Assembly: GCF_001598795.1 (NCBI RefSeq)
Contig: NZ_BCZP01000002.1
Coordinates: 330,001 to 362,000, forward strand
Reading direction: 5' to 3'
DNA: 32,000 nt
From: Delftia acidovorans NBRC 14950
GTDB taxonomy: Bacteria; Pseudomonadota; Gammaproteobacteria; Burkholderiales; Burkholderiaceae_C
The first letter of the stretch is position 1. Every line of letters begins with the position of its first letter. A program made the translations under genes and the position numbers. Under the pieces are notes generated by a model. That model was not told the origin of the DNA. It did no database searches and worked only from the letters and a program-made list of their open reading frames with translations. Below, piece after piece: positions 2,514 to 28,570 of this stretch.

Positions 2514-2984
2514 TTAGATTGCCGGAATGCGCAGCTTCTGGCCGGGGTAGATCTTGTCTGGGTGGCTCAGCATGGGCTTGTTGGCCTCGAAGATCACCGG
2601 GTACTTGTTGGCATCGCCATAGAACTTCTTGGCAATGGCCGACAGCGTGTCGCCGCGCACCACGTCGTGGTACTGGGCTTCGGGCTCGGGGTTGGTCACC
2701 GTCATCTGGTTGTCCACCGACTGCACGCTGGAGACGTTGCCGCAGCACAGCGTCACCTTTTCCTTGACCGCCTGGGTGGGGGCCGTGCCCAGCACCGTGA
2801 CCTTGCCCTGCGAGCCATCGAACTGCACCTTCACGTCGCTGACGCCCAGGTTCTGCGTGCCGATATAGGTCTCGATGGCCTTGGCGGCCTTGGCATTCAG
2901 GTCTTGCGCAGGCTCGGCTGCCTGTGCGGCGCTGCCGCCGAACAGCTTTTCGCCGGCTTCCTTGATGAAACTGAAAAGTCCCAT
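2514..2984 (-). CDS. kbp: BON + LysM domain protein, Kbp/YgaU type (potassium-binding / peptidoglycan-binding)
   Basis: MGLFSFIKEAGEKLFG N-terminus and C-terminal YHDVVRGDTLSAIAKKFYGDANKYPVIFEANKPMLSHPDKIYPGQKLRIP closely mirror E. coli YgaU/Kbp. An AGGAG Shine-Dalgarno lies upstream on the minus strand. Confidence 0.92.
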   Translation of the reverse strand: MGLFSFIKEAGEKLFGGSAAQAAEPAQDLNAKAAKAIETYIGTQNLGVSDVKVQFDGSQGKVTVLGTAPTQAVKEKVTLCCGNVSSVQSVDNQMTVTNPEPEAQYHDVVRGDTLSAIAKKFYGDANKYPVIFEANKPMLSHPDKIYPGQKLRIPAI

Positions 2985-3169
2985 GGGTGACTCCTGTTGG
3001 TGGGTGGAAAAACGGAAAGGCCAATGTAACGCCTAACAGTGGCAGCGCGCGCTGCCGGGCAGGAGCGCTCCCGGATTTTTGACATTTGCGCCATTCTTGC
3101 GTTCACGTCCTCACTCAGTTGTCGTCCATGGCTGACGCTATCCTCCGGAAAACTCCGATAATCGCGCCC

Positions 3170-3982
3170 ATGACTTTTTTGGCCATAGACATCGGCAACA
3201 CCCGCTTGAAATGGGCGATGTACGACGCGCATCGGCCTGGCGCCGCTTTGCTGGCGCACGGCGCGGAGTTCCTGGAGCACATCGAGCACTTGGCCGAAGG
3301 GCCGTGGAGCGACCTGCCCACGCCTACGCGCATGCTGGGCTGCGTGGTGGCCGGCGACACGGCGCGCCGGCGCGTGCACGACCAGATCGACATGATGCTG
3401 GGCTGGGATTTCGAGCCGCAGTGGGCCGTGCCCGGCGCGGCCGAGGCCGGAGTCACCAACGGCTACGACTTCCCCTCGCGCCTGGGGGCGGACCGCTGGG
3501 TGGCCATGATCGGCGCGCGCCAGCACATCCTGCAGCGCGGGCCAGAGCGGCCCCTGATCGTGGTCATGATCGGCACCGCCGTCACCGTGGATGCGCTGGA
3601 CCAGCACGGCCACTTCATGGGCGGTCTGATCCTGCCGGGGCACGGCATCATGCTGCGCGCCCTGGAAAGCGGCACGGCCGGCCTGCACGTGCCCACGGGT
3701 GCGGTCACGCCATTCCCCACCAACACCAGCGACGCGCTGACCAGTGGCGGCACCTACGCCATCGCCGGGGCCGTGGAGCGCATGTACCAGCATCTGTACA
3801 TGCACTGCAGCATGGAGCCCGCCTGCGTCATGGCCGGCGGTGCAGGCTGGAAGATGGTGCCCAGCATGACGCGGCCCTTCGAGCTGGTGGACAACCTCAT
3901 CTTCGAAGGCCTGCTGGTCATGGCGCAGCGCCGCTGGGGCGATGCCAGCGGCCTGCCTGCCGACGCGGTCAAAGCGGCCTGA
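3170..3982 (+). CDS. coaX: Type III pantothenate kinase
   Basis: Frame of ORF 3086..3982. ATG 3170 gives [16 protein letters not shown], the CoaX/Bvg-accessory-factor signature. GADRW and TSGG motifs occur later. Confidence 0.9.
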
Positions 3983-4132
3983 AGCCACTTCGATCGTGCG
4001 GCGCAGCATCGCGCCGTTATATCCGTTGCGTAACAGTTGATGACAGCGCTGATGCCGGGTGCGGGGGCGGCCGTGGACCCCACATCCGGAGCCTTTCGCG
4101 GGGGATGCGGCGACAGTGGATAATCCGCGGCA

Positions 4133-5860
4133 ATGTCTTCCACCAATCACGTCATGGAACCGATTGCCGGTGTCGAAGCCCCGATCAAGGGGCGGCTGGG
4201 CGAACGCCTGCTTTCCGCCGGCAAGCTGAACGAGCGCGATCTGCAAAACGCCCTGCAGGCGCAGCAGGAGCTGGGCGGCTACCTGGGCCAGGTGCTGGTC
4301 CAGCTGGGCGTGGTGGCGGAAGCCGACGTGGCCCAGGCGCTGTCCGAGCAGCTGCACATGCGCTGGCTGCGCGCGGAAGAGTTTCCCGATCTGCTGCCCG
4401 ATGTGCCGGGCCTGCTGGCCAGCTTTCTGGATGCGCAGTGCGTCTGCCCCATTTCGCTGCAGGACGGCGTGCTCGAAGTGGCCATGTCCGTGCCGCAGGA
4501 CCCCTTCATCACCAAGGCGCTGCGCCTTGCCACCGGGTTGCAGATCAAGCCCGTGCTGGCGCTGGAAGCCGATATCCGCAAGGCCCTGTCCGAAGCCGGC
4601 CAGGAACCCGAAGGCGAAGAAGGCCAGGACTGGGAGTCGGACGCCACGGGTGGCGACTTCGTCGAGCATCTGAAGGACCTGGCCAGCGAGGCGCCGGTCA
4701 TCCGCCTGGTCACGGGCATCATTTCCCGCGCCATCGAGCTGCACGCCTCCGACATCCACCTGGAGCCCTTCGAGGCTGGCCTGCAGGTGCGCTACCGTAT
4801 GGACGGCGTGATCCATGCGGCCGAACTCGTGCCGCCACGGCTGAGCGCAGCCGTGGGCTCGCGCGTCAAGCTGCTGGCCCATCTGGACATTGCCGAGCGG
4901 CGCCTGCCGCAGGACGGCCGCATCAAGACCCGCGCCAAGGGCCGCGAACTGGACCTGCGTGTCTCCACCGCACCCACGGTGCATGGCGAGAGCATCGTCA
5001 TGCGGGTGCTGGACCGCGCCAACGTGCGCCTGCGCCTGGAAAGCATGGGCTTCGAGGCCGATACGCTGGAGCGCTTCAACACCTTGCTGGCCAAGCCGCA
5101 CGGCATCGTGCTGGTCACTGGGCCCACGGGCTCGGGCAAGACCACCACGCTGTACGCGGCCCTGTCCAAGATCGACGCGGTTTCCAACAAGATCATCACC
5201 GTCGAGGACCCGGTCGAGTACCAGCTCGACGGCATCAACCAGATCCAGGTCCATCCGCAGATCGACCTCACCTTTGCCAACGCCCTGCGCTCCATCCTGC
5301 GCCAGGACCCGGACATCATCATGATCGGCGAAATGCGTGACGGAGAAACCGCGCAGATCGCCGTGCAGTCCGCACTGACAGGTCACCTGGTGCTGTCCAC
5401 GCTGCACACCAACACGGCCGCAGGCGCCGTCACCCGCATGCGAGACATGGGGGTGGAGAGCTACCTGATCACGTCCTCGGTCAACGGCGTGCTGGCCCAG
5501 CGCCTGGTGCGCACGCTGTGCTCGCACTGCAAGCAGCCCGACACGCTGCCGGCCGCCGCCGTCGAGGGCAGCGGGCTCAAGCGTTTTTTGCGCGAGGGCT
5601 CTCCCATCTACCGCGCCGTCGGCTGCGAGCATTGCCGGGGCACGGGCTACAAGGGCCGTACCGGCATCCATGAACTCATGGTCATCGACGAGCCGCTGCG
5701 CCGCGCCATCATCGAAGGCCAGGACGCCAACGCCCTGCATGCCATGGCGGCCAAGAGCGGCATGCTGAGCCTCTACGACGACGGCCTGCGCAAGGTGGCC
5801 TCGGGCGCCACCACGCTGGACGAAGTGCTGCGCGTGACCCAGGACCAGAGCGATGCCTGA
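4133..5860 (+). CDS. gspE: Type II secretion ATPase GspE with an MshEN-type N-terminal domain
   Basis: Walker A GPTGSGKTTTL, Asp/His boxes, tetracysteine CSHC...CEHC motif and a T2SSE_N-like N-terminus. 575 aa. Confidence 0.95.
   Translation: MSSTNHVMEPIAGVEAPIKGRLGERLLSAGKLNERDLQNALQAQQELGGYLGQVLVQLGVVAEADVAQALSEQLHMRWLRAEEFPDLLPDVPGLLASFLDAQCVCPISLQDGVLEVAMSVPQDPFITKALRLATGLQIKPVLALEADIRKALSEAGQEPEGEEGQDWESDATGGDFVEHLKDLASEAPVIRLVTGIISRAIELHASDIHLEPFEAGLQVRYRMDGVIHAAELVPPRLSAAVGSRVKLLAHLDIAERRLPQDGRIKTRAKGRELDLRVSTAPTVHGESIVMRVLDRANVRLRLESMGFEADTLERFNTLLAKPHGIVLVTGPTGSGKTTTLYAALSKIDAVSNKIITVEDPVEYQLDGINQIQVHPQIDLTFANALRSILRQDPDIIMIGEMRDGETAQIAVQSALTGHLVLSTLHTNTAAGAVTRMRDMGVESYLITSSVNGVLAQRLVRTLCSHCKQPDTLPAAAVEGSGLKRFLREGSPIYRAVGCEHCRGTGYKGRTGIHELMVIDEPLRRAIIEGQDANALHAMAAKSGMLSLYDDGLRKVASGATTLDEVLRVTQDQSDA
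4193..4351 (+). other. Tandem 24-residue MshEN-like c-di-GMP-binding motifs in GspE (residues 21-73)
   Basis: RLGERLLSAGKLNERDLQNALQAQ, then QELGG, then YLGQVLVQLGVVAEADVAQALSEQ, compared with RLGxx[LVI][LVI]xxG[LVI][LVI]xxxxLxxxLxxQ repeated twice with a 5-residue spacer. Confidence 0.6.
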
Positions 5861-7070
5861 TTACAGCTGGGAGGCCGTGGACAGCCGCGGCCAGATGGTC
5901 AAGGGCACTTTTTCCGCTGCGGCCGTGGCCGAGGTGGTGGTGCACCTGCGCAAGAGCCGGCTGTCGCCCATCAAGGTCGAGGAAGCCGTGGGCCTGGGCA
6001 ATGTGCCGCTTGCGGTGCGTGCGCTCAAGAAAGGCCGCATCAAGGCCGACGACATCCAGGGCATGACCACCGAGTTGGCCATCATGATGCGTGCCGGCCT
6101 GTCGCTGGACAACGCGCTCAAGGTCCTGGTGGAGATGAGCCACAAGGTGCAGATGCAGGCCATGCTCCAGTCCGTGCTCGACAGCGTCAAGGCCGGCATG
6201 CCGCTGAGCCAGGCACTGGGCAAGCACCACGACCTGTTCGGCGACTTCTATATCAACATGGTGCGCTCGGGCGAAGCCAGCGGCCAGATGTCGGGCGTGC
6301 TCAACCGGCTGGTGGAACACATGGCGCGCCAGCGTGCCCTGCGCGACAGCGTGGTCTCGGCCACCATCTATCCTGCCATCCTGCTGGGCGTGGCCGTGCT
6401 GTCCCTGGTGGCCATGCTGGGCTTCGTCGTGCCGCAGTTCGAGCAGCTCTTCAACGACATGGGTGACGCGCTGCCCCTTCCCACGCAATTCGTGATGGGG
6501 CTGGGCCATGCGTTTCGCAGCTACGGCTGGGCGGTGTTCATCGTGCTGGGCGCGCTGGGCTGGGTCTTAGCCCGCTGGGCCAAGAGTCCCAAGGGTCGTC
6601 AGACCTGGCAATCGTGGCTGCTGGGCCTGCCGGGCCTGGGTGGCGTGGTGCGCAAGTACCAGCTGACCCTGTTCAGCCGCTCGCTGGGCACGCTGCTGGG
6701 CAACGGCGTCACACTGCTGACCGCACTGCGCATTGCCAGCGACACGGTCTCCAACGTCGCCATTCGCGAGCGCCTGGAAAAAATGGGTCCCATGGTCAAG
6801 GAAGGCCATCGCATGGCCCATGCCGCCCAGAAAACCGGAGAATTCGAGCCCCTGGCCCTGAATCTGGTGCGGGTCGGCGAGGAAACCGGCCGGCTGGGCG
6901 ACATGATGCTGGAGCTGTCCAACATATTGAACCGCGAGGTCGAAAACGCGATCAAACGCCTCCTGACCATGCTGGAGCCGGCGCTGATCCTGGTCCTCGG
7001 TATCCTTATCGCCTCCATCATCGTGTCGATCCTGCTCGGAATCCTGTCCGTCAACGATCTGGCCGTCTGA
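5853..7070 (+). CDS. gspF: Type II secretion inner-membrane platform protein GspF
   Basis: 405 aa with duplicated T2SSF domains and 3 TM segments. The start overlaps the gspE stop by 8 nt. Confidence 0.95.
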   Translation: MPDYSWEAVDSRGQMVKGTFSAAAVAEVVVHLRKSRLSPIKVEEAVGLGNVPLAVRALKKGRIKADDIQGMTTELAIMMRAGLSLDNALKVLVEMSHKVQMQAMLQSVLDSVKAGMPLSQALGKHHDLFGDFYINMVRSGEASGQMSGVLNRLVEHMARQRALRDSVVSATIYPAILLGVAVLSLVAMLGFVVPQFEQLFNDMGDALPLPTQFVMGLGHAFRSYGWAVFIVLGALGWVLARWAKSPKGRQTWQSWLLGLPGLGGVVRKYQLTLFSRSLGTLLGNGVTLLTALRIASDTVSNVAIRERLEKMGPMVKEGHRMAHAAQKTGEFEPLALNLVRVGEETGRLGDMMLELSNILNREVENAIKRLLTMLEPALILVLGILIASIIVSILLGILSVNDLAV

Positions 7071-7102: not shown

Positions 7103-7543
7103 ATGATGCGCATGCAAAAGCAACTGTCCTCCCGCGCCCGCAAGCGTGGCTTCACGCTGATCGAACTGCTGGTCGTGCTGGCCATCCTGACCCTGCTGGC
7201 CGGCCTGGTTGGCCCCAAGGTGCTGAACCAGTTGGGTGGAGCAAAGACCAAGACGGCCGGCGTGCAGATCGCCGACATCGAAAAGGCGCTGGAGCTGTAC
7301 AAGCTCGACGTGGGCCGCTATCCCACCTCGCAGCAGGGCCTGGACGCGCTGGTCAAGCAGCCTGCCGGCGTTGCCGGCTGGGCGGGCCCCTACCTCAAGG
7401 GCGGCGTGCCCAATGATCCCTGGAACAACCCTTACCGCTACACCTACCCGGCTGCCAATGGCGACCTCGAGATCCTCTCGCTGGGTTCCGACGGCACACC
7501 CGGTGGCGAGGGCGAGGCCTCTGATATCCGCAACACCAAGTAA
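7103..7543 (+). CDS. gspG: Major pseudopilin GspG
   Basis: Prepilin motif KRG|FTLIELLVVLAIL, plus IEKALELYKLDVGRYPT, DPWNNPY and the C-terminal LGSDGTPGGEGEASDI Ca-site-like loop typical of GspG. Confidence 0.95.
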   Translation: MMRMQKQLSSRARKRGFTLIELLVVLAILTLLAGLVGPKVLNQLGGAKTKTAGVQIADIEKALELYKLDVGRYPTSQQGLDALVKQPAGVAGWAGPYLKGGVPNDPWNNPYRYTYPAANGDLEILSLGSDGTPGGEGEASDIRNTK

Positions 7544-7595
7544 GTTGCTGGTCTGACGCCGTAGTGCAACGCTGCCTCCGTGCCGGGAATATGTC

Positions 7596-8039
7596 TTGAA
7601 GCGCGCCCATGGTTTCACGCTGATCGAGTTGCTGGTGGTCTTCGGCATCCTTGCCGCGATCATCGGCATCGTGCCGCCCGCCATGGGCAAGTTGCGGGAT
7701 GCCGTCGCCTACCGCCAGACCGTGCAGGACGTCACGGCCCTGCTGCGCAAGGCTCGGCAGCAGGCGACGCTGCAGGGCATGCCCGTGGCGTTTGCCGTCA
7801 ATACAAATAGCCGCCAGTACGGCATTGCCGGGCAGGCGACTGCCAAATTGCCAGACACCCTGACAGTGCAATTGACCACGGCTGCGGGCACGGCCCTGGC
7901 CGATGGCAGCCAGACCATTGTGTTCCTGCCGGAAGGTGGCGCCACTGGGGGCAGCATCTCGCTGATTCGCGGCGAGGGCAGCGGTGTACGCCTTCGCGTG
8001 GACTGGCTGTCCGGCCTGGTCACCAAAGAGGGCTTGTGA
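7596..8039 (+). CDS. gspH: Minor pseudopilin, GspH-like
   Basis: TTG start. Prepilin motif AHG|FTLIELLVVFGIL. The size (147 aa) and the position after gspG fit GspH. Confidence 0.75.
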   Translation: MKRAHGFTLIELLVVFGILAAIIGIVPPAMGKLRDAVAYRQTVQDVTALLRKARQQATLQGMPVAFAVNTNSRQYGIAGQATAKLPDTLTVQLTTAAGTALADGSQTIVFLPEGGATGGSISLIRGEGSGVRLRVDWLSGLVTKEGL

Positions 8040-8443
8040 TGCGCCGCCACACTGCAGCCCGCGGCTTCGCGGGAGGCATGACCCTGCTGGAGTTACTGGT
8101 GGCATTGACCATCATGGCCATCTCCGTCGCTCTGATATATCGCGCTGTCGGTGGATCAGCCCGGGGCGTGACGCAGTTGGAGCGTAACCAGGGCGCTGCC
8201 ATGCTGGCAGAGTCGCTGATGGATGCTTTTTCCATGGTCGATCCAGGTGGAACCCAGGCCTCGGGGCAAGATGGGTTTTATACGTGGCAAGTTGCGTCAG
8301 CGCCTTTTCCTGTGGGTGATCTCCCAGAAACGGCCGTCCCGCTGCATGCCCTGCGCATCACGATTGTTTCTGAAGGGCGCAGCTGGGTGTTCGAGACCCT
8401 TCGTCCGCAGCGGCCACTGCAACAGGGTGAGGTGTCGCGGTGA
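8036..8443 (+). CDS. gspI: Minor pseudopilin, GspI-like
   Basis: GTG 8036 or ATG 8039 overlaps the gspH stop. Prepilin motif AGG|MTLLELLVALTIM. 135 aa. Confidence 0.7.
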   Translation: MMRRHTAARGFAGGMTLLELLVALTIMAISVALIYRAVGGSARGVTQLERNQGAAMLAESLMDAFSMVDPGGTQASGQDGFYTWQVASAPFPVGDLPETAVPLHALRITIVSEGRSWVFETLRPQRPLQQGEVSR

Positions 8444-9111
8444 CAAGACAGTTGCGACCCGCTCGGCCGTACCAGTCAGGCTTCACCCTGGTGGAGTTGC
8501 TGGTTGCGATGGTGCTGCTTTCCATGCTGACATTGGGGCTGGCCTCGGTGATGTCCACCGTATCGCAGACTCAGGAGAGAGTCGATGTTCGACTGGACCG
8601 CATGGATCATCAGCGCGTGGCGATTGGTTTTTTGCGGTCCACTCTCGGACAGATATCGGCGGTGAGGCGCCAAGCAGGGATGCGCAAACAAGGTGAGAGC
8701 GAGTTCTTCTTTCAAGGGGGACCGCGCGGCATGCAATGGCTGGGCATCATGCCGGCCCGGTTCGGGATGGGCGGACGTACGCATTTCAGGCTGGCTGTCG
8801 AGGGTGATGCCTTGACACTGTATTTCGCGCCGTGGAAGGCTGCGGATGTTGCACCTGATTGGGCGCAGGGGCAGTCGTATGTGATCGACCGGGGCGTCAC
8901 GGCTTTTGCCCTGAGTTACCAAAATGTCAAAGTAGGGGTCTCGCAGTGGTCGCCACAATGGGAAAATGAGAAGGAACTGCCCTCGGCGGTACAAATACAG
9001 CTTCAAGGCGGTTCTGGCAGTTGGCCCCTGATTGCCGTGGAGTTCCATACACCACCGGCGACGAATCGCTCTACCAGCGGCGGGGCTGTCTTTGGGGGCG
9101 GTCAGCGATGA
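8440..9111 (+). CDS. gspJ: Minor pseudopilin, GspJ-like
   Basis: GTGA overlap with gspI. Prepilin motif QSG|FTLVELLVAMVLL. 223 aa, the usual GspJ size and position. Confidence 0.75.
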   Translation: MTRQLRPARPYQSGFTLVELLVAMVLLSMLTLGLASVMSTVSQTQERVDVRLDRMDHQRVAIGFLRSTLGQISAVRRQAGMRKQGESEFFFQGGPRGMQWLGIMPARFGMGGRTHFRLAVEGDALTLYFAPWKAADVAPDWAQGQSYVIDRGVTAFALSYQNVKVGVSQWSPQWENEKELPSAVQIQLQGGSGSWPLIAVEFHTPPATNRSTSGGAVFGGGQR

Positions 9112-9881
9112 AGAGTCTGCAACGCTGGCCGATAGCGGCTTCGAACAAGGGGATGGCGCTGGTTCTTGTGCTGTGGATCGTTGCGGCGCTTGCCATCTTT
9201 GCTAACAGCTTGGGTGGCGTGGTTCGCAGGGAAGCGGCGGTGGCCAGCGTGGTGCGCAACTCCATCTATGGCCGAGGGGCTGGTGAAGCAGCCATTTTCC
9301 GGTTACTGCAGAAAATAGCAATCCAACCCTCAGACTTTGCGGAACGCCGAGTAGAGGGTGTCCCCTGGGGGGGGCAGATAATAGAGGTCGAAGTCGCCCC
9401 CTGGAGCGGGCTGATCAACATCAATGCTGCCCCGCAGAATCTGTTGGCGGTGGTGTTGAAAAAACTGGGTGTACCTCAGTCCGAAGCTTTGGCGCAGACG
9501 CTGGTTGAAACACGCCAGGTGGTCAGGGCAGGATCTGCGGGCGTGGCCTGGGAATCCCCCGAGGATTTGCTGCAGGTGCCAGGGATGACCTATGGCATCT
9601 ACGCACAAATGCGGCCCTTGATCGTTGCAGATACAGGCGGAAGATCCGGAGTCAACCTGAAGGCGGCCCCGGAACTGCTGCTGAGGCTGCTTGAGGGTGT
9701 GGAGGATGGGGCGGTTCGCGGAAATATCACCAGTACGCGTTATCGACTGACGGCCAGAGTACCCGTCGAGGGAGGGGGCGCCGTGCTGGTCATCCGAGAT
9801 GTGGACGTTTCAAGGGCACGCCAGAATTCACTGCCCTGGGTGGTGCTGTCCGCTTCCCAGGTGTGGGCTGGGCGTATGTGA
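9108..9881 (+). CDS. gspK: Minor pseudopilin, GspK-like
   Basis: ATGA overlap with gspJ. NKG|MALVLVLWIVAAL lacks Glu+5, as is typical of GspK. Two helix-hairpin-helix-like segments are present (ININAAPQNLLAVVL and VNLKAAPELLLRLL). Confidence 0.75.
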   Translation: MKSLQRWPIAASNKGMALVLVLWIVAALAIFANSLGGVVRREAAVASVVRNSIYGRGAGEAAIFRLLQKIAIQPSDFAERRVEGVPWGGQIIEVEVAPWSGLININAAPQNLLAVVLKKLGVPQSEALAQTLVETRQVVRAGSAGVAWESPEDLLQVPGMTYGIYAQMRPLIVADTGGRSGVNLKAAPELLLRLLEGVEDGAVRGNITSTRYRLTARVPVEGGGAVLVIRDVDVSRARQNSLPWVVLSASQVWAGRM

Positions 9882-9985
9882 TGTACTCAATCGGATGTGG
9901 CGCCAGAAGTTAGGAGAGCGCTGGACCGCTGCTAGCCGGAAGGAAAGAAAGTGAAAGTAATACTATTGAATGGTTGTGGCGTCGT

Positions 9986-11104
9986 ATGACATTGATGACT
10001 TCTGATGCCAAACTGTTCGGTTTGGACTTGCGGGGGCTTTCATCGGAGCTTCGTGAGGCATGGCAGGCACTTCAGCGCCTACCATTGCTCAGCCGGCTGC
10101 TTCCGGCATCGATGGTGCAAGTCTGGGTTGGTGCCCAGGCGCCTATCGTCGCTAGGGCGCAGGGCGTCAACATCGAGTGGCTCGATGGATCGACCACTCT
10201 CTTGGCGCAAGCACAGTACACGGCGGTTCTGTTGGAGGACGATCAGGTTCTGCAGCGGGTTCTGAAGCTTCCGCAAATGGGACCGACTGCAATGAGGGGC
10301 GCCATTGAGCTGGACGTGCAGACGATGACGCCCTTTGCTCCACAGGACACGCTTTGGGCCTATGCGGTCCGGCCCGCTGCGCGGGCTGGTGCGCTGCTGC
10401 ATGTTGAAGTGGTACTTGCCTCGCGTGCGCAAGTTGAACAGGTGCTGCGCCAGCGGGCTTCAAGCATGCCGGAGGGTGTCCACCCTGAGGTTTGGGCCCC
10501 CACCAGTGGCAGCCCTGTCGTGTTGCCGGGTTTTGGCGAAACATCGCGCTGGCGTGGCGAAGCAAAGCGGGGCGGCTGGATCGGGTTGGGCGTGATCGGG
10601 GTGCTCGTCATGGCCCTGGCCCTGGCGGTCACTCCTACCGCGCAACTGAGATTGCGTGCGGTCGATGCGGGAGAACAATTTTCCCGGCTCAGCAAATCCA
10701 CCTCCGAGGTTGTGGCACAGCGCCAGGCCCTGGTTGAAGGAGTGCAAGATCTGGGCAAACTGCAGGAGCGTGTGCAGCAGCAAATCAATCACCTGCAGGT
10801 GCTGGCGACGCTGACAAAGGTATTGCCCGATGACACAGCAGCTCAGCGCGTGGTGTTCAGAGGCAGCAAACTTACGGTCCAAGGGCTTACCAACAATGCG
10901 TCTAACGTAGTGGCATTGCTGGCTAAGACTCCTGGCTTTCAGGAAGTACGACTGCCAACGGCCGTGACGCGTGTCCCCGGATCTGGCAAGGAGAGCTTTA
11001 CGCTGGAGGCGAACATCGATCCGCAGGTCCTGGGCATGCTCGCCAAGGCAGAAGAGGACAAGCCGCCAGCGGAAGGCGGGGCGATTGCCAAGGAGGTCCA
11101 ATGA
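9986..11104 (+). CDS. gspL: GspL-like bitopic assembly-platform protein
   Basis: Frame of ORF 9974..11104, with possible starts at TTG 9974, ATG 9986 or ATG 9995. A ~200-aa cytoplasmic part contains LKLPQMGPTAMRGAIELDVQTMTPF (GspL-like). A single TM (WIGLGVIGVLVMALALAV) and a periplasmic coiled/ferredoxin-like tail follow. The position between gspK and gspM fits GspL. Confidence 0.65.
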   Translation: MTLMTSDAKLFGLDLRGLSSELREAWQALQRLPLLSRLLPASMVQVWVGAQAPIVARAQGVNIEWLDGSTTLLAQAQYTAVLLEDDQVLQRVLKLPQMGPTAMRGAIELDVQTMTPFAPQDTLWAYAVRPAARAGALLHVEVVLASRAQVEQVLRQRASSMPEGVHPEVWAPTSGSPVVLPGFGETSRWRGEAKRGGWIGLGVIGVLVMALALAVTPTAQLRLRAVDAGEQFSRLSKSTSEVVAQRQALVEGVQDLGKLQERVQQQINHLQVLATLTKVLPDDTAAQRVVFRGSKLTVQGLTNNASNVVALLAKTPGFQEVRLPTAVTRVPGSGKESFTLEANIDPQVLGMLAKAEEDKPPAEGGAIAKEVQ

Positions 11105-11688
11105 CAGCAGGCGCGCAGAAGCTGACCTTGCGTCAATGGGCCCTTCTTGGTGGGATCGCCGTCCTCTTGGTTGTTCCACTGTTACTCCTGGGAAGCTGGA
11201 TTTATTCCAAGCACCAATGGGCCCAGGAACAACTGGGCACACTGGAGCCGCGCTACGCGAGGCTTGCCGGCATGCAGGGGCAGACGGAGGAAATTCAGGA
11301 AGCGCTGAAGAGGATCGAGTCCACCAAGGCTCTGCACATCTACCCGGCAGAGCAGGACAGCACTCAGACTGGCAATGCACTTCAGCAACGCTTGCGGACC
11401 GTCTTGGACAAAGCGGGACTCTCCGTGGTCAGCAGCCAAGTGCGTCCTACCTCTGAATCAGGTGAATCTGATCAGGGTCCTTATGAACGCATTTCCGTGT
11501 CGATGACGGCAGAGGGCGAATGGTCTGCCATCCAATTGGCCATCATGTCATTACCCGAAGTTACGCCCACCGTGTGGCTCGATGATCTGCAACTGAATCT
11601 GCTGGGCAATCTGGAAAGCAACAACCTCAGAGTGCCGCCCAAGATCAGCGCGCAGTTTGTTTTCAGCATTCTTCGGAGCAAGCCGTGA
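11101..11688 (+). CDS. gspM: GspM-like protein
   Basis: ATGA overlap with gspL. 195 aa with one N-terminal TM (WALLGGIAVLLVVPLLLLGSWI). The size, topology and position match GspM. I did not recognise strong sequence motifs. Confidence 0.6.
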   Translation: MTAGAQKLTLRQWALLGGIAVLLVVPLLLLGSWIYSKHQWAQEQLGTLEPRYARLAGMQGQTEEIQEALKRIESTKALHIYPAEQDSTQTGNALQQRLRTVLDKAGLSVVSSQVRPTSESGESDQGPYERISVSMTAEGEWSAIQLAIMSLPEVTPTVWLDDLQLNLLGNLESNNLRVPPKISAQFVFSILRSKP

Positions 11689-12362
11689 ACCAGCGCATTC
11701 TTTGGACCGCAGGGTTGTCCGTGCCCGTGGCGCTGTTGGGGGGAGCACTTGCGTGGATGTGGTTGACACCGCAGATGCAGCTCAAAAACGCTGGCTGGGA
11801 GGCTCCGCATCCGATCAAGGCAGATATTCAATCGCTTGTGCCTGCCGAGCAGGCACTTTCTGGTAACAAGCCGCAGGGCGAGATGCAGCTGCTGGAGATG
11901 CACGAACGGCCGCTGTTCGTGATGAACCGCAGGCCCCCACCGCCTCCCCCACCGCCAGAGCCTGAGAAAAAAGTCGAAGAAATCCCTGATGCCTGGGTGC
12001 AGGCGCGTGTCACAGGCATTTTTGAGGGGCCTGTCACCGGGATCATTGTCCATATCGATGGCAAGGAGCGACGGCTCATGCTCAACCAGAGTTTTGCGGG
12101 CTGGAAGCTGCAAGGCATAGAGCAGCGCAGCATCCTTTTGGAGCGCGGCGGTCAGATACGTTCGTTGCAATTGGCGAAGGCCGTCCTCGACAAAGGCCCT
12201 AGCATTCCGGCCAGCATGCGCGTGCCTTCCGTCGGCGCGGGGCCTTCGCCTGGCAGCAACTCTGGCGAATCGGCTTCTGAGCGCGCAGAAGGGGAGGCAG
12301 GCGCCCCCCCGGCTCGGCCAGCACCGCGTGCCGTATTCGGCGGAACCTCGAGCCGCAAATGA
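11685..12362 (+). CDS. GspC/XpsN-like secretin-coupling protein (no PDZ domain)
   Basis: GTGA overlap with gspM and ATGA overlap with gspD. It has an N-terminal TM, a poly-Pro linker RRPPPPPPPPPEPEKK, then a short beta-rich segment (VTGIFEGPVTGIIVHIDGKERRLMLNQSFAGWKLQGIEQRSILLERGG) resembling the HR/PilP-like secretin-binding fold. Its position equals that of XpsN. Confidence 0.5.
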   Translation: MNQRILWTAGLSVPVALLGGALAWMWLTPQMQLKNAGWEAPHPIKADIQSLVPAEQALSGNKPQGEMQLLEMHERPLFVMNRRPPPPPPPPEPEKKVEEIPDAWVQARVTGIFEGPVTGIIVHIDGKERRLMLNQSFAGWKLQGIEQRSILLERGGQIRSLQLAKAVLDKGPSIPASMRVPSVGAGPSPGSNSGESASERAEGEAGAPPARPAPRAVFGGTSSRK

Positions 12363-14854
12363 AACAGTTTCTTAAGAAAACCATGAAATTGCAAAACAGA
12401 CATTTTCATACGGCGCTGTCGCTGGCGGTTTGCCAGCTGTTGGTTGCCTGTGCACAGCCCCAGCAGAACAACTATGTCAGCCATTTCGGCGCGGGTCAGC
12501 AATCCGAAGGCTATGTGTTCAATGACGAAGATCAAAGCGTGGGCAAGAAGGCCTCCGAAAAATCATCGACGCCCGAGCCACGCCTCCTTGAGGGGACTGG
12601 TAAATTGCTGGCCGATGCCAAGCCGTCCAAGGCCTTGAAAGATGCGCAGGTCAAGCTCAGTTTCGAGGATGCGCCTCTGGCCCAGGTCGTGCGGACAGTG
12701 CTGGGGGATATTCTTGCGCTTGACTATGTGCTGCACCCGCCGATTACTGGAACAGTCACCCTGAGCACGCAGCAGAATGTCTCGGGGGACAACGCGTTGT
12801 ATCTGCTGGAGGCGGCCTTGCAGGCCAATGGCATGGGTATAGCGCGTGATGCTCGTGGCACTTACCATGTCGGCCGTCTTGATGCGCTCAAGGGCTTGGG
12901 GGCTGCAGTACGGCAGGCGTCGCCCACTCAGCCACTGGCGCCAGGATACGGAGCCATTGTTGTGCCGCTGAACTATATAGGTGCCAATGAAATGGCGGCC
13001 ATCTTGCGTCCCATGGTGCCGGGTGATGCCATTCTTCGTGTTGACAACGTGCGCAACATGCTGGTGATGGCCGGATCCCGTGCACAGGCGGAAGGTTGGC
13101 TTGAGATGGTTCGCACCTTCGACGTAAATGTTCTGGAAGGCATGTCGGTAGGCGTTTTTCCTCTCAAATATGTCTCTATCCAGGAAGTCAGTGCCGCTTT
13201 GCAACTGATGAGCGGGGGCGGTGCCCCTGGGGCTGGGGCTCCTGGCGCGGGTGTGGCTCCTGCTGCAACTACGGCAAGGCCAGGGGGGGCGGCGACTGCA
13301 GCACCTGGCGCTTCCATGGCGGCTCTGGGCGAAGGCAATCCGCTATTTGGTGCCCTGCGCATCATTCCCATTGAGCGGCTCAACAGTATCTTGGTCATCA
13401 CGCCTCGCGCCTCCTATCTGGATGAGGCGCGCCGCTGGATTGCCAAGCTCGACCAGGCTGGCACGGGTGGGGCGCAGCCGCAACTCAATATCTACAAAGT
13501 GCAAAACGGCAATGCTCGGCACCTGGCAAGTGTTCTGTCGGGTATTTTTGGAGGGTCTGCCGGAGGTATGTCTACCAACAGCGGCGTGGCGCCAGGACTG
13601 GGTACATCCACGACGAGCATGGGGGGGAGCAGCTTCGGAAGCGGCGGCTTGGGTAGCAGCAGCTTTGGCAGTGGTGGTTTTGGCGGCGGTGGTTTGAGTA
13701 GTGGCGGCTTTGGTGGCGGCAGTTTTGGCAGCGGTGGCTTTGGTGGTGGTGGACTCGGCGGGGCGGGGCGTGGCTTCGGGCAGACCGGAAGCACCGGCCA
13801 GTTGGGCGGAGTGGCAGGGGCAAGCGCCGCAGCCACCAGTCTGGGCAGCGTTCGTGTCATGGCGGATGAACTCAACAACTCCGTGCTGGTCTGGGGTACG
13901 CCCGCAGAGTACGAGCGTATAGAGGCGGCGCTCAAGAAACTGGATTTGCCTCCCACGCAAGTGCTGATAGAGGCAAGCATCGTGGAGGTGACGCTGAACG
14001 ACACCTTGCGGTACGGTTTGCAATGGGCCTTCAGTGGTGATGTCGGCAACAAGGGTTATAGCGGTACGGGCAGTGTGCTGACCGGGGATGCTCCCGGTTC
14101 AACAGGATTCGCAGAAACTGGCGGACTGGCGGCAACTCTTGGCTCAGGCTTCAACTACACGGTCAAGAACTCGCTGGGCAATATCAAGGCAGTGCTCACT
14201 GCTCTTTCGGGCAAGACCAATGTCAAGGTGGTGGCCAGCCCTACGGTGATGGTGCTGGATAACCATACGGCGGGCATCATGGTGGGCACACAGCAGCCCT
14301 ATTCGGCGGGCTCCACCACATCGACAACGACGGGAGTTACTACCAACATTCAGTACAAGGATACCGGGGTCATCCTGCAAGTCACTCCTTCGGTCAATTC
14401 CGGCAATATCGTCACCATGAATGTCGATCAGACTGTCTCGGCGCTGGGCTCGAATGTAACTGTAGGGGGGTCCAGCAATCCCTCCTTCTCGCAGCGGCAG
14501 ATCTCCAGCAGGGTGGCAGTGCGCTCTGGAGAGTCAATTGTCATGGGCGGACTGATCCAGGAGCGCTCTACCAACACGCGCAGTGGCATCCCCATACTGC
14601 ATGATCTTCCGGTGGTTGGAAATCTCTTCGGGCAGACATCGAACGTGGGGGATCGAACAGAGCTGCTTGTCGTCATCACGCCAAGAGTCGTTCGCACGGA
14701 CATTGATGTGCGGGTGGTCAGCGACGATTTGCGTGAGCAAATGCGTTCTTTGACGCCCTTGCTGAAGTCACCCAATACAGTTCCTGCTGCTGACGACGGT
14801 GCAAGGGGCAAGCCGCTGGTGGAGGTGGGGCCCCTGACGCCTGAGCAGCGCTAG
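12359..14854 (+). CDS. gspD: Secretin GspD, predicted lipoprotein (liposecretin), with low-complexity insertions
   Basis: 831 aa. Lipobox LLVA|C with Cys31 (codon 12449-12451). N0-N3-like repeats are present (LSFEDAPLAQVVRTVL..., VPLNYIGANEMAAIL..., FPLKYVSIQEV..., IYKVQNGNARHLASVL...). The secretin core reads VLIEASIVEVTLNDTLRYGLQW ... GIPILHDLPVVGNLFG ... ELLVVITPRVV. Confidence 0.93.
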   Translation: MKQFLKKTMKLQNRHFHTALSLAVCQLLVACAQPQQNNYVSHFGAGQQSEGYVFNDEDQSVGKKASEKSSTPEPRLLEGTGKLLADAKPSKALKDAQVKLSFEDAPLAQVVRTVLGDILALDYVLHPPITGTVTLSTQQNVSGDNALYLLEAALQANGMGIARDARGTYHVGRLDALKGLGAAVRQASPTQPLAPGYGAIVVPLNYIGANEMAAILRPMVPGDAILRVDNVRNMLVMAGSRAQAEGWLEMVRTFDVNVLEGMSVGVFPLKYVSIQEVSAALQLMSGGGAPGAGAPGAGVAPAATTARPGGAATAAPGASMAALGEGNPLFGALRIIPIERLNSILVITPRASYLDEARRWIAKLDQAGTGGAQPQLNIYKVQNGNARHLASVLSGIFGGSAGGMSTNSGVAPGLGTSTTSMGGSSFGSGGLGSSSFGSGGFGGGGLSSGGFGGGSFGSGGFGGGGLGGAGRGFGQTGSTGQLGGVAGASAAATSLGSVRVMADELNNSVLVWGTPAEYERIEAALKKLDLPPTQVLIEASIVEVTLNDTLRYGLQWAFSGDVGNKGYSGTGSVLTGDAPGSTGFAETGGLAATLGSGFNYTVKNSLGNIKAVLTALSGKTNVKVVASPTVMVLDNHTAGIMVGTQQPYSAGSTTSTTTGVTTNIQYKDTGVILQVTPSVNSGNIVTMNVDQTVSALGSNVTVGGSSNPSFSQRQISSRVAVRSGESIVMGGLIQERSTNTRSGIPILHDLPVVGNLFGQTSNVGDRTELLVVITPRVVRTDIDVRVVSDDLREQMRSLTPLLKSPNTVPAADDGARGKPLVEVGPLTPEQR
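13547..13843 (+). repeat. Gly/Ser/Phe-rich low-complexity insertion in the N3-like domain of GspD (about residues 397-495)
   Basis: FGGSAGGMSTNSG...GGSSFGSGGLGSSSFGSGGFGGGGLSSGGFGGGSFGSGGFGGGGLGGAGRGFGQTGSTGQLGG, with 8 FG dipeptides. The DNA shows imperfect tandem ggc/ggt/ttt-ggc repeats. Confidence 0.9.
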
Positions 14855-14894: not shown

Positions 14895-14922
14895 AAATAC
14901 CTTTTTGGACCAAGATACACAT

Positions 14923-15369
14923 ATGAACACGTTGACAAAGATCCCTGCATTGGCAGGCATGCGCCGGATTTTGTGGGGTGCGGGTGTGGCTGGCGCCTTG
15001 GTGCTGGCCGGCTGTGCCACCACAACAGGGGGCGAGCAGAGCAAGGCTCAGAAACCCGAGGAGGCCGTAACGCAGCGATCGAACGAGTTCTGGAAGGTTC
15101 GCATGGCGGGGGATGTCGGTCAGGCCTATGCTTTCACCACTCCAGGCTATCGTGCGGTCAACAGCCTGGAGAAGTACCGGCTGAACCACGGCGCCGTCCC
15201 GTCCCTCAGTGGTGGCTCGATCGCCTGGGTCAAGTGCGAGGACAAGCGCTGCGAGGTTCGCAAGAACTTCACCACCAGCAGCCCGGTCATGGGCAATACA
15301 CAGATTCCTATCTCTATCAGCGAGGTGTGGACGCAGGAAGACGGCCAGTGGTGGCTGTTCCTGGAATAA
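14923..15369 (+). CDS. Small lipoprotein of unknown function (NTF2/DUF4878-like appearance)
   Basis: ATG 14923 in the frame of ORF 14905..15369. Signal plus lipobox LVLAG|C. The mature part contains EFWKVRMAGDVGQAYAF and the C-terminal EDGQWWLFLE, reminiscent of small NTF2-like lipoproteins. Confidence 0.75.
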   Translation: MNTLTKIPALAGMRRILWGAGVAGALVLAGCATTTGGEQSKAQKPEEAVTQRSNEFWKVRMAGDVGQAYAFTTPGYRAVNSLEKYRLNHGAVPSLSGGSIAWVKCEDKRCEVRKNFTTSSPVMGNTQIPISISEVWTQEDGQWWLFLE

Positions 15370-15675: not shown

Positions 15676-17184
15676 ATGAAGAAAAATGTTCTGGCCCTGA
15701 GCATTGCTGCCATGGTTGGTGGCCTGGGCTTCGCTGGCGCTGCGTCCGCACAATCGTTCCAAGTGAACGAAAGCGGCACAGGCCACATCCTGGTGGTGCC
15801 CTACTACACCGCCCAGAACGGCAACATGTCCGTGTTCCACCTGACCAACACCGACACCATCCGTGGTAAGGCTGTGAAGGTGCGTTTCCGCGGTGCTTCG
15901 AACTCCGACGACGTGCTTGACTTCCAAGTCTTCATGTCGCCTGGTGACGTGTGGACCGCTGCTGTGACGGCTGACGCCGCTGGCAAGGCCCAGCTGGTGA
16001 CTGCAGACAACACCTGCACGCTGCCCGCTATCGCCAAGAACACGCCTGTTCCGTTCGTGACCGATCGTCTGGCTCGTCAAGGCTGGACTGACGCGGACAA
16101 GGCTGCTCAGACTCGTGAAGGCTACGTTGAAATCCTCAACATGGCCGACATCTCGAATCTGAACCCTGCTGCTTCGTCCTTGTACAAGGCCACGAAGCAC
16201 GCGAACGGCGTTGCTCCTTGCACCTCCTCGGTCCTGCAAGACACGCTGCTGGGCTACCCCGCCATGACTTCGCAGAACGAACTGTCCGCGCCCACCGCGA
16301 CGCTGACCGGTTCGTGGTATGTGATCAACGTGGCTCAGTCCACGACGTTCTCTGGCGCCGCTCCCGCTCTGGTGGGCAATGCTCCTACACGCGTCGTGTT
16401 CTCGCCCCAAGTTGAAGGCGAAACCACGTTCAAGACGTCTGACCCGCTGATGGTTGCTGGCACTATCAAGGCTCAGCACTATGACGTGCCTGACCTGTCG
16501 ACGCCTTACTTCGCCAGCCAATCGCTGACGAGCCAGACCGACGCCGACACCAATGCTACGAACCTGACGAATGCTCTGGGTCGTAACACCATCATGAACC
16601 AGTACGCAACGGATCTCAGCATCTCTGCTAAGACCGACTGGGTGTTCTCGATGCCTACCCGCCGCTACACTGTGGCTGCTAACTATGCATCGACGGCCAC
16701 GAACTATGCTGGTCAGCTGAATGTGTCTGCCACTGGCACGCCTACGACTGCTGAACTGAACGCTTACACGTACATCAACAGCGCTGTGACCGGCAACATC
16801 TTCTCGACAGGTGCCAAGGTTTCCGCCAATGACCAAGGTCAGCTGTGCGTGACGGCTTCCAAGCAAGAGTTCTACGACCGTGAAGAAAACGTGCAGTCCA
16901 GCGGCGCGATCTTCTCGCCCGGCACGACCAAGACGGCCAAGCTGTGCGGTGAAGTCAGCGTGCTGTCCTTCACGTCCGATGCTTCGGCTCTGGGCGCTGC
17001 TGTGGCACGTCAGACCGTGGCTGCTCCCTACACTAACGGTTGGGGCACCATCGGCTTCGGTACGGACCGCGCTCCCGTCCTGGGCGCTGCGTTCCTGAAG
17101 CTGACCAACCCCCAAGCCGTTCCTGGCACCGTGGGTACGTACGGCATCACCTGGCCCCACGCTTACGGCTCTGCCGCTCAGTAA
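15676..17184 (+). CDS. Abundant-type secreted/surface protein of unknown family; candidate T2SS cargo
   Basis: ATG 15676 is preceded by GGAGA. Sec signal MKKNVLALSIAAMVGGLGFAGAASA|QSF. The protein is rich in Ala/Thr/Ser/Asn/Gly and has 4 Cys. Codon usage shifts to GCT/GGT/CGT/TTC/AAC, unlike its neighbours. I recognised no domain by eye. Confidence 0.85.
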   Translation: MKKNVLALSIAAMVGGLGFAGAASAQSFQVNESGTGHILVVPYYTAQNGNMSVFHLTNTDTIRGKAVKVRFRGASNSDDVLDFQVFMSPGDVWTAAVTADAAGKAQLVTADNTCTLPAIAKNTPVPFVTDRLARQGWTDADKAAQTREGYVEILNMADISNLNPAASSLYKATKHANGVAPCTSSVLQDTLLGYPAMTSQNELSAPTATLTGSWYVINVAQSTTFSGAAPALVGNAPTRVVFSPQVEGETTFKTSDPLMVAGTIKAQHYDVPDLSTPYFASQSLTSQTDADTNATNLTNALGRNTIMNQYATDLSISAKTDWVFSMPTRRYTVAANYASTATNYAGQLNVSATGTPTTAELNAYTYINSAVTGNIFSTGAKVSANDQGQLCVTASKQEFYDREENVQSSGAIFSPGTTKTAKLCGEVSVLSFTSDASALGAAVARQTVAAPYTNGWGTIGFGTDRAPVLGAAFLKLTNPQAVPGTVGTYGITWPHAYGSAAQ

Positions 17185-17218: not shown

Positions 17219-17252
17219 AGGCGGGAGGAAACTCCCGCCTTTTTTGTTTTTT
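17219..17252 (+). terminator. Strong Rho-independent terminator after the cargo gene
   Basis: aggcgggag-gaaa-ctcccgcct (9-bp GC-rich stem, GAAA loop) followed by tttttgtttttt. Confidence 0.9.
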
Positions 17253-17264
17253 CGGAAAGGACTT

Positions 17265-18200
17265 ATGACTGCTTCCATCCAACGACTGACGATGGCCTCG
17301 CTGATGTTGACTGCCATGATGGCAGGCCAGTGGGCCTGGGCTGAAGCCAAGTTGCCCGACGCTGCGGATGCCCGCAAGCCCGCTGCTGTTCAGACGCTGG
17401 CACAAGGCCAGAATATAGTGATCACGGATCTGGACGTGCAGGCGGATGCGCAACGCATCCCCCCAGATGTGCGCCCCTTGATTCTGGCGCGCTCACAGAA
17501 TGTGGGGCAGATGGCGTCTGATCTCTATGTCTTCCGCAACATGGCCAAGATGGCGCAGCAGCTGGGAATGGAGCGCGATCCCCGGGTGGCTGCTGCCCTG
17601 CAGGTTGCGCGTGACCGGGTGCTTGCCAACGCCTGGATGGATGCGCTGGATGAAAAGAACATGCCCAGCCTGGAGGCCGCAGAAAAGCAGGCGCGCAGCA
17701 TTTACCAAGCACAGCCAGATCGCTTCAAGGTTGGTGAAGAAGTGCGTGCGCGCCACATTCTGATTTCAGGCAAGGATGCCGAGGCGCGTGCCAAGGCAGA
17801 ACAAGTGTTGGCGCAGCTCAAGTCAGGTGCAGACTTTGCAACGTTGGCCAGGGAAGTGTCGGCTGACAAGGGCAGTGCAGCGCGTGGTGGTGACCTGGGC
17901 TTTTTCGGCAGGGATCGCATGGCTCCGGAGTTCGAGAAGGCCGCTTTCGCGCTGCAAAAGCCCGGTGATCTCTCCACTGTCGTGGAGACCCAGTTTGGTC
18001 AGCACATCATCCAACTGGAAGCACGTCGTCCCGCCGGCATCAAGCCTTTCGAGGAAGTGCGCGAAGGTATGGTCAAAGAAATCCGCTCCATCGCTGCCAA
18101 GGACGTGCGCTCTGCAACGGCCGAGCAACTCCGTGCGGATGTCAAGGTTGACAATGCTGCGGTTGAAGCCTTCGCTTCAAAGAACGAACCCAAGCCCTGA
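17265..18200 (+). CDS. Periplasmic parvulin-type peptidyl-prolyl cis-trans isomerase (PpiC/SurA/PrsA-like)
   Basis: ATG 17265. Signal ...AGQWAWA|EAK. The rotamase domain reads VRARHILISGKD...GADFATLAREVSADKGSAARGGDLGFFGRDRMAPEFEKAAFAL...TQFGQHIIQLE. Confidence 0.88.
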   Translation: MTASIQRLTMASLMLTAMMAGQWAWAEAKLPDAADARKPAAVQTLAQGQNIVITDLDVQADAQRIPPDVRPLILARSQNVGQMASDLYVFRNMAKMAQQLGMERDPRVAAALQVARDRVLANAWMDALDEKNMPSLEAAEKQARSIYQAQPDRFKVGEEVRARHILISGKDAEARAKAEQVLAQLKSGADFATLAREVSADKGSAARGGDLGFFGRDRMAPEFEKAAFALQKPGDLSTVVETQFGQHIIQLEARRPAGIKPFEEVREGMVKEIRSIAAKDVRSATAEQLRADVKVDNAAVEAFASKNEPKP

Positions 18201-20453: not shown

Positions 20454-20507
20454 GCGGCTCTGCCACACCCGCGCAAGCGGCTCGGCTGTCTCCCTATTCC
20501 ATACCCC

Positions 20508-21404: not shown

Positions 21405-21446
21405 GCGTGTTGACAGGGTTGTAGAGAGAACAGAGAGGACGATTGC

Positions 21447-22307: not shown

Positions 22308-22314
22308 CGAAGCC

Positions 22315-23358: not shown

Positions 23359-23369
23359 AAGGGAGTGCC

Positions 23370-28226: not shown

Positions 28227-28570
28227 AGGAAATGAGGTGCCAGGCGCGGTCCGGGCAGGGATCGATCGCCCGTCATATTCATCTGCGCCAGTCGACCGTG
28301 GCCGGTCCGCAGAGAGCAGCAGGGCACGCCCACGCCAGGCGCAAAAAATCCCGGAAGTCCGGGCGGCAGATTGTCGCGCATCATAATCCCGGCCACCGCA
28401 GTGATTGCTTGGCATGGCGGGTTAATGACATTTTGTGCGGCTGTTGCATTTCCTTGCATCACGGCATACCCGCTGACGCCTTCCGGGCGCCTTCCGCTGA
28501 ATACTCGGAGCCGCCGTTTTTTCGGCGCAGGTATGCGGGTTGGAATTTGAAGATCTGAAGGGCGGCATTG

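Follow-up and report, generated by a model that had tools for sequence, protein, structure and literature searches.

The window analysed here, a 32,000-nucleotide stretch of Delftia acidovorans NBRC 14950 DNA (contig NZ_BCZP01000002.1, positions 330,001 to 362,000), encodes a type II secretion system (T2SS) whose motor ATPase, GspE, starts with what is, as judged by sequence comparison and a structural model, an intact MshE-type (MshEN_N) four-helix module for binding cyclic di-GMP (c-di-GMP). The module comprises the first approximately 75 residues and is placed ahead of an N1E-like subdomain. Sequence analysis and structure prediction established the identity of the domain, its register relative to MshE, its predicted fold, its selective conservation and its operon context. 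The explanation that accounts best for these results, and which we consider reasonably probable, is that the module binds c-di-GMP and that binding licenses secretion, the most obvious substrate being NpdA, a surface layer (S-layer) protein encoded in the same region. The gspE gene and the relevant parts of its product are:

4133-5860, plus strand: gspE, T2SS ATPase, 575 amino acids (TIGR02533 634 bits; Pfam T2SSE)
4193-4264, plus strand: c-di-GMP motif 1, residues 21-44, RLGERLLSAGKLNERDLQNALQAQ (10 of 11 consensus positions; ungapped to MshE R9-Q32)
4265-4279, plus strand: spacer QELGG, residues 45-49 (5 residues, the length found in MshE; Wang 2016)
4280-4351, plus strand: c-di-GMP motif 2, residues 50-73, YLGQVLVQLGVVAEADVAQALSEQ (9 of 11 consensus positions; aligns to MshE R38-Q61)
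4403-4612, plus strand: MshEN_C / N1E-like alpha-beta subdomain, residues 91-160 (Pfam MshEN, PF05157, 50.6 bits; pLDDT of the model >95)
4682-5833, plus strand: N2E and C-terminal ATPase domain, residues 184-567 (Pfam T2SSE, E 6.5e-143)

Its sequence identifies the product of the open reading frame (ORF) 4133-5860 as the GspE motor ATPase in a Delftia T2SS with the Xps gene order. It narrowly passed the GspE equivalog model TIGR02533 (634 bits, cutoff 630.25, residues 95-569), scored below the cutoff of the PilB model TIGR02538 (582 against 675), and its translation contains the Walker A sequence GPTGSGKT and a CxxC...CxxC pair (tetracysteine motif). There are two in-frame ATG starts, at 4133 and 4154. 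Delftia orthologues are 568 amino acids long in NCBI, which fits a start at M8 (4154), and 575 amino acids long in JGI records; residue numbers given here refer to the 575-residue ORF, those of the public 568-residue records being 7 lower. Clustering at 90% identity placed the protein among 152 near-identical sequences from several Delftia species (D. acidovorans, D. tsuruhatensis and D. lacustris), which are annotated as GspE of Delftia.

An initial annotation of this DNA had proposed that residues 21-44 and 50-73 constitute a pair of motifs for binding of c-di-GMP that are separated by QELGG. Translation of positions 4193-4351 (plus strand) indeed yielded RLGERLLSAGKLNERDLQNALQAQ-QELGG-YLGQVLVQLGVVAEADVAQALSEQ, GspE residues 21-73, with a spacer of exactly five residues. 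Each motif was scored against the 24-residue pattern RLGxx[LVI][LVI]xxG[LVI][LVI]xxxxLxxxLxxQ, which has 11 specified positions (22 for the tandem). Motif 1 matched at 10 positions, the deviation being K31 (position 11), and motif 2 matched at 9, deviating by Y50 in place of R and by V66 in place of L (position 17); these are exactly the one and two deviations that had been listed. The tandem score was 19/22, whereas the sequence of the cluster representative (P0001, with 99% identity to the window GspE), shuffled 2000 times, gave best tandem scores no higher than 12/22 (mean 9.0). The curated NCBIfam model NF053729 ("c-di-GMP_motif, MshE-related") covered residues 21-73 over its whole length (model positions 1-53 of 53; E 3.9e-15, 55.4 bits, cutoff 38). 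The Pfam family MshEN (PF05157, formerly T2SSE_N) also matched above its gathering threshold (50.6 versus 23.1 bits), within residues 91-160 only. Because this model begins inside motif 2 and does not include motif 1 (Wang 2016 supplement), its match is uninformative about the binding motif; PF05157 was rejected as a motif test and NF053729 was taken as the proper one.

Motif scores ranged from 7 to 21 among 150 relatives of the representative library, intact and degenerate forms both being widespread. The relatives P0122-P0136 are approximately 1000 amino acids long with two matched stretches each, and P0122 contains two T2SSE domains and T2SSF fragments; these proteins are either unusual fusions or artefacts of gene calling or assembly.

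The phmmer alignment of residues 21-73 to Vibrio cholerae MshE (PDB 5HTL) was ungapped. In motif 1, R21, L22, G23, L37, L41 and Q44 of GspE correspond to R9, L10, G11, L25, L29 and Q32 of MshE, and in motif 2 the corresponding pairs are Y50 and R38, L51 and L39, G52 and G40, V66 and L54, L70 and L58, and Q73 and Q61. Ten of the 12 ligand-contact residues are identical, the exceptions being the conservative replacement of L54 by V66 and the replacement of R38 by Y50. The contacts made by these residues in MshE comprise guanine stacking, leucine clamps, reading of O6/N7 by backbone amides, and glutamine contacts to ribose and phosphate (Wang 2016, PMC5013675).

In an AlphaFold2 model of GspE residues 1-180, made with a 35-sequence alignment, the predicted local distance difference test score (pLDDT) exceeded 95 between residues 21 and 155; helices at 22-28, 34-47, 51-58 and 63-74 preceded an alpha/beta subdomain. 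In Foldseek comparisons the predicted model matched 5HTL (MshE with c-di-GMP) with TMt 0.81 and a root mean square deviation of 2.4 Å over 139 columns at approximately 27% identity, 2D28 (the N-domain of XpsE, XpsE-N) with TMt 0.75, and c-di-GMP-bound PilF GSPII-B with TMt of approximately 0.73. XpsE-N was crystallised in two forms in which the N-terminal helices are placed differently; the predicted model fits one of them at 2.6 Å and the other at 12.1 Å. The alpha-beta subdomain weakly matched the N1 domain of EpsE in complex with EpsL (2BH1; TMt 0.73, E 0.49). EpsE N1 binds EpsL, and in other GspE proteins the N1E-like subdomain contacts GspL. The hidden Markov model and structural comparisons agree with the proposal of the initial annotation that this stretch is an MshE-type c-di-GMP-binding signature, and they place the motif positions as structurally equivalent to those of MshE. 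Its statement that canonical EpsE/GspE N1 domains lack the motif also holds, the V. cholerae GspE/EpsE protein having no motif and not binding c-di-GMP (PMC4624772; Wang 2016 supplement).

Conservation of the contact residues was followed in a genome scan, which returned 80 loci. The 53-residue segment was taken from 74 of these; left out were L045 and L078, which were truncated or mis-registered, as well as L058, L061, L074 and L077, outliers from Bryobacterales, Solibacteraceae and Thiothrix. The 74 segments consisted of 56 relatives from Comamonadaceae, other Burkholderiales, Rhodocyclales, Cellvibrionales and Thiotrichales, and of 18 XpsE-type sequences from Xanthomonadales. Among the 56 relatives G23 was invariant (56/56), and G52 (48/56), L41 (50/56), L70 (49/56), Q44 (48/56) and Q73 (38/56) were mostly retained, whereas none of the 18 XpsE-type sequences had G23, G52, L70 or Q73. 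The scaffold residues L26, G30, L32, D36, A40, G48, L58, G59, V61, S62, E63 and D65 were conserved in both groups, and among the relatives the spacer residues E46 and G48 were conserved as well. XpsE is a published non-binder, reported to have lost c-di-GMP binding through exactly these changes of contact residues (Wang 2016). As the contacts were kept in the 56 relatives and lost in the XpsE type while the scaffold was retained, selection in the lineage of the window acts on the ligand site, beyond any upkeep of the fold. Comparison of motif intactness with npdA linkage gave no clean signal (median score 16 with npdA seen and 15 without, in 10-kb flanks that often end before npdA).

In the mechanism that we propose, one molecule of c-di-GMP would be bound across the two motifs. 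Recognition of guanine O6/N7 would fall to the backbone amides of G23/E24 and G52/Q53, and contacts to ribose and phosphate to Q44 and Q73; hydrophobic clamps would be made up of L22, L37, L41, L51, V66 and L70, with R21 and Y50 as stacking partners of the two bases. If MshE is taken as the model, ligand binding would bring the N-terminal bundle into a conformation in which GspE can interact with GspL and the platform and extend the pseudopilus; secretion would be licensed when c-di-GMP is high and stalled when it is low. With NpdA, which is encoded downstream and corresponds to the linked cargo of the initial annotation, as the most obvious substrate, export of the surface layer would be coupled to the c-di-GMP (surface/biofilm) state of the cell. 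In V. cholerae c-di-GMP-bound MshE promotes pilus extension and the G11I substitution abolishes pili; the L10A/L54A/L58A triple mutant is non-binding and constitutively active (PMC7096442). From these results, from the two forms of XpsE-N and from the EpsE N1-like subdomain we infer that the bound state may favour productive engagement of GspE with the platform. Gating of secretion by c-di-GMP, which the initial annotation had suggested, is a reasonable inference by analogy with MshE and with the ATPase PA14_29490 of Pseudomonas aeruginosa. A wider proposal would be that c-di-GMP directly licenses NpdA export, and hence S-layer renewal and nanopod formation, through the NpdA-linked T2SS motor, and that this control is conserved across many Beta- and Gammaproteobacteria and was repeatedly lost (Xanthomonadales Xps, Caenimonas, Rhodoferax); we offer it tentatively and regard it as somewhat doubtful.

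Several observations weigh against licensing of secretion by c-di-GMP. The ATPase activity of MshE, the prototype, changed by less than 10% with c-di-GMP in vitro. No GGDEF, EAL, HD-GYP or PilZ domain was detected in the window ORFs scanned, and the window has no gene for a diguanylate cyclase or phosphodiesterase. A dedicated NpdA export system similar to that of Aeromonas salmonicida was proposed in PMC10765051 as something still to be tested. Motif 2 was lost, with both G52 and Q73 replaced, in the Burkholderiales relatives L011 (Caenimonas), L014-L016, L022 (Rhodoferax) and L049. Within the binding site itself, Y50 falls outside the published R/K/L set for the first motif position (the orthologues carry Y, L or M), and we found no published protein in which Y was tested at this position of motif 2. 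K31 occupies the position of MshE I19, and I19R is one of the eight changes listed for the non-binding XpsE; by the register of the alignment, MshE D108, the single MshEN_C contact, is V120 in GspE.

Among the loci that lost motif 2, the npdA gene was visible in the available flank of L011, L014 and L022, and the gsp cluster was intact in L011, L014, L016 and L022; L015 ends after gspK, and L049 shows only gspE. Since motif 2 was lost in some NpdA-linked relatives, the motif, and with it such control, is dispensable in some lineages, and these relatives, as natural loss-of-site variants, are possible controls. That export can run without the motif would also fit a module which binds c-di-GMP and has an output other than an on/off licence for secretion, for example tuning of localisation or of partner choice, inhibition, or response to another dinucleotide such as 3'3'-cyclic GMP-AMP (cGAMP). 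The nearly unchanged MshE ATPase activity and the constitutive activity of the non-binding triple mutant point in the same direction, and MshEN does bind cGAMP weakly (Wang 2016). However, in the one well-studied case binding was needed for extension, as the loss of pili in G11I shows, and the affinity for cGAMP is approximately 600-fold lower than that for c-di-GMP (Wang 2016). We therefore consider a different output or a different ligand unlikely, if worth keeping in mind.

The deviating positions bear on another explanation, according to which the four-helix bundle is a scaffold, kept as in XpsE for a structural or GspL-docking role, with its likeness to the motif inherited and its useful affinity for c-di-GMP gone. 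The fold of XpsE is the same although the protein does not bind c-di-GMP, K31 of GspE and R of XpsE are both basic residues at motif position 11, and Y50 and V120 stand in place of R38 and D108. Among 120 close homologues the deviations from the motif pattern were family traits: motif 1 has K at position 11, and motif 2 starts with Y, L or M and has V at position 17. Known binders tolerate residues other than Arg at the first position. We take PA2677 of strain PAO1 to be the orthologue of PA14_29490. In the former, motif 1 begins with P (Wang 2016 supplement), and the latter binds c-di-GMP with a dissociation constant (Kd) of 480 nM (Roelofs 2015, PMC4624772). PilF GSPII-B, with K167 and L196 at the first motif positions, has a Kd of 6 nM, and its K167L variant one of 2 nM, on the basis of which the consensus was extended to (R/K/L)LG (PMC11731258). 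R21 fits this set, and the aromatic side chain of Y50 could stack on the base. The replacement of D108 by V120 was judged to be minor because MshEN_N alone binds; the isolated MshEN_N in fact binds c-di-GMP more tightly than the whole MshEN domain (Wang 2016). K31 and V120 weigh mildly against binding. A mere scaffold would leave unexplained why G23, G52, Q44, Q73, L41 and L70, which serve only the ligand, are kept here and in most of the 56 relatives and replaced in the XpsE lineage; together with the NF053729 score well above cutoff and the nanomolar binding by proteins with non-Arg first residues, this makes the loss of binding improbable. Chance likeness of a helical, L/A/Q/G-rich segment in a high-GC genome, where proteins tend to be rich in Ala, Gly, Arg and Leu, was refuted by the NF053729 match, by the shuffle test, by the ungapped alignment to solved MshEN domains and by a register kept over hundreds of homologues, and can be disregarded.

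The preferred reading, a c-di-GMP-binding module that licenses secretion, places GspE in a T2SS whose gene order, E-F-G-H-I-J-K-L-M-N-D, is that of Xanthomonas xps and is conserved in the related loci. The genes following gspE are:

5853-7070, plus strand: gspF (Pfam T2SSF; TIGR02120 355 bits, below the cutoff of 424)
7103-9111, plus strand: the pseudopilin genes gspG (7103-7543), gspH (7596-8039), gspI (8036-8443) and gspJ (8440-9111), with T2SSG, GspH, N_methyl and XpsH/XpsI/GspJ-type matches
9108-9881, plus strand: gspK-like minor pseudopilin gene (weak T2SSK/GspK matches below cutoffs; position conserved in related loci)
9974-11104, plus strand: gspL-like gene (Pfam PilN at residues 275-347; position conserved in related loci)
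11101-11688, plus strand: gspM, XpsM type (T2SSM_b; NF040576 GspM_XpsM 84 bits, cutoff 60)
11685-12362, plus strand: gspN/C-like ORF (weak T2SSC match)
12359-14854, plus strand: gspD, secretin (TIGR02517 448.8 bits, cutoff 351)
14905-15369, plus strand: small lipoprotein-like ORF, 154 amino acids (lipoprotein-like signal; no family match in Pfam or NCBIfam)
15676-17184, plus strand: npdA, S-layer / nanopod protein (502 amino acids, with a 25-residue signal peptide)

Among the pseudopilins G to K only GspG scored above its NCBIfam cutoff; H, I, J and K were recognisable, with scores below the equivalog cutoffs. The ORF in the gspL position matched no GspL model of Pfam or NCBIfam, and the expected cytoplasmic domain for docking of GspE was unrecognisable by sequence. 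Assignment of the ATPase to an MSHA pilus was rejected, as the gene order, GspG, the XpsM-type GspM and GspD indicate a T2SS, and the MshL and PilQ models scored far below their cutoffs. Very long alternative-frame ORFs extend across coaX and gspE (2897-5740, minus strand, 947 amino acids, and 3211-5340, plus strand, 709 amino acids); such ORFs are typical for a high-GC genome and were treated as spurious.

NpdA matched no Pfam or NCBIfam family. Its homologues are named 'cell surface protein [Delftia]', and over its full length it aligned with one of the NpdA orthologues given in the PMC10765051 supplement (BLASTP E 1e-109). NpdA has been experimentally established as the S-layer/nanopod protein of Delftia sp. 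Cs1-4 (PMC3110197) and shown experimentally to be the S-layer protein of Paracidovorax citrulli (PMC10765051). Conservation of 12 gsp genes upstream of npdA was described in the latter work (PMC10765051, 2023), which mentions neither c-di-GMP nor the N-domain of GspE; the npdA-carrying taxa reported there are the taxa of the closest GspE relatives found here. In at least 20 related loci an npdA homologue follows gspD. Divergence of NpdA is far more rapid than that of the T2SS genes: a D. acidovorans homologue is only 66% identical, whereas GspE belongs to the 90%-identity cluster of 152 sequences. In most related loci a homologue of the small ORF 14905-15369 (22-40% identity) lies between gspD and npdA; its product could serve as an accessory protein, pilotin-like or anchoring the S-layer.

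Directly after npdA there is a gene for a secreted PpiC/SurA-type peptidyl-prolyl isomerase (17244-18200, plus strand), and in three Cellvibrionales loci (L030, L032 and L036) npdA and the isomerase gene are found side by side, there upstream of gspE, an arrangement that points to conservation of the npdA-ppiC pair. The T2SS-npdA block is directly followed by an ABC-transporter-type polysaccharide/O-antigen cluster (18376-30453). The cluster encodes Wzm, Wzt with a C-terminal binding domain, several methyltransferases, two acyltransferases and a WecA-like GT4 glycosyltransferase, and on its minus strand a 1326-residue methyltransferase-GT2-GT1 fusion. Since assembly of the NpdA lattice was reported to depend on lipopolysaccharide (PMC3110197), the adjacency of the polysaccharide cluster to npdA may be functional.

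The motif in Delftia GspE is not new in kind. T2SS-associated c-di-GMP-binding ATPases were described in 2015-2016 (PMC4624772, PMC5013675), MshEN ATPases were found to be encoded in typical gsp operons (Wang 2016, PMC5013675), the motif was reported for a GspE of Leptospira in 2026, and standard annotation models (NF053729) already recognise it. For c-di-GMP biology the protein is one more predicted MshEN receptor, and an ordinary one. Within the literature searched, the only new angle is that the motif-bearing T2SS is the one linked to the NpdA S-layer; no paper connecting NpdA or S-layer T2SSs with c-di-GMP was found there. Direct evidence in vivo for control of a GspE-family motor by c-di-GMP comes from pilus systems (MshE), and we found none for a genuine T2SS whose substrate is known. 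The Delftia/Paracidovorax system offers a complete T2SS with an abundant and easily scored candidate substrate encoded next to it, an NpdA S-layer that is visible by transmission electron microscopy and extractable with LiCl, and npdA mutants that already exist in Delftia Cs1-4 and P. citrulli. It could make an effect of c-di-GMP on a T2SS ATPase directly testable. If the proposal is true, a second messenger would control S-layer secretion at the secretion motor, and production of the S-layer and of nanopods would be linked to the switch to a surface lifestyle.

Among the systems with which the Delftia GspE can be compared, V. cholerae MshE (5HTL) is alike in its two motifs of 24 residues, which are spaced by 5 residues and lie in register without gaps, and in a four-helix bundle and subsequent alpha/beta subdomain that precede an ATPase of the GspE/PilB type, the protein having the same length (575 amino acids). 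It differs in powering a type IV (MSHA) pilus and not a T2SS, in the four positions at which Delftia GspE has Y50 for R38, V66 for L54, K31 for I19 and V120 for D108, and in the basic residues ahead of motif 1, which are fewer in Delftia GspE. PA14_29490 is also alike in deviating from R at the first motif position, as read from its presumed orthologue PA2677, and is to our knowledge not linked to an S-layer gene. It is a GspE-branch ATPase of a putative T2SS operon, whose N-terminal T2SSE_N domain binds c-di-GMP at the affinity given above (PMC4624772).

Of the solved T2SS N-domains, that of XpsE from Xanthomonas campestris (2D27/2D28) comes closest (phmmer E 4e-15, Foldseek TMt 0.75); the xps T2SS agrees in gene order and in its GspM of the XpsM type, and XpsE in having a basic residue at position 11 of the motif. 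In contrast to Delftia GspE, which retains the contact residues except for R38 (Y50) and L54 (V66), XpsE lost the equivalents of G11, L29, R38, G40, L54, L58 and Q61 and does not bind c-di-GMP. PilF GSPII-B of Thermus thermophilus (8PDK) is likewise of the MshEN type and was solved with c-di-GMP; its first motif residues (K167/L196) are not Arg, and its L at position 1 of motif 2 is shared with many Comamonadaceae orthologues of the Delftia protein. It differs in being the ATPase of type IV pili and natural transformation, with three tandem GSPII domains and a motif 2 that is one residue shorter. The gsp1 system of Paracidovorax citrulli (Comamonadaceae, PMC10765051) and the S-layer-dedicated T2SS of Aeromonas salmonicida resemble the Delftia locus in that an S-layer gene lies beside a complete gsp cluster; the published work does not deal with c-di-GMP or the GspE N-domain, and the dedication of the system to NpdA is at the stage of a proposal.

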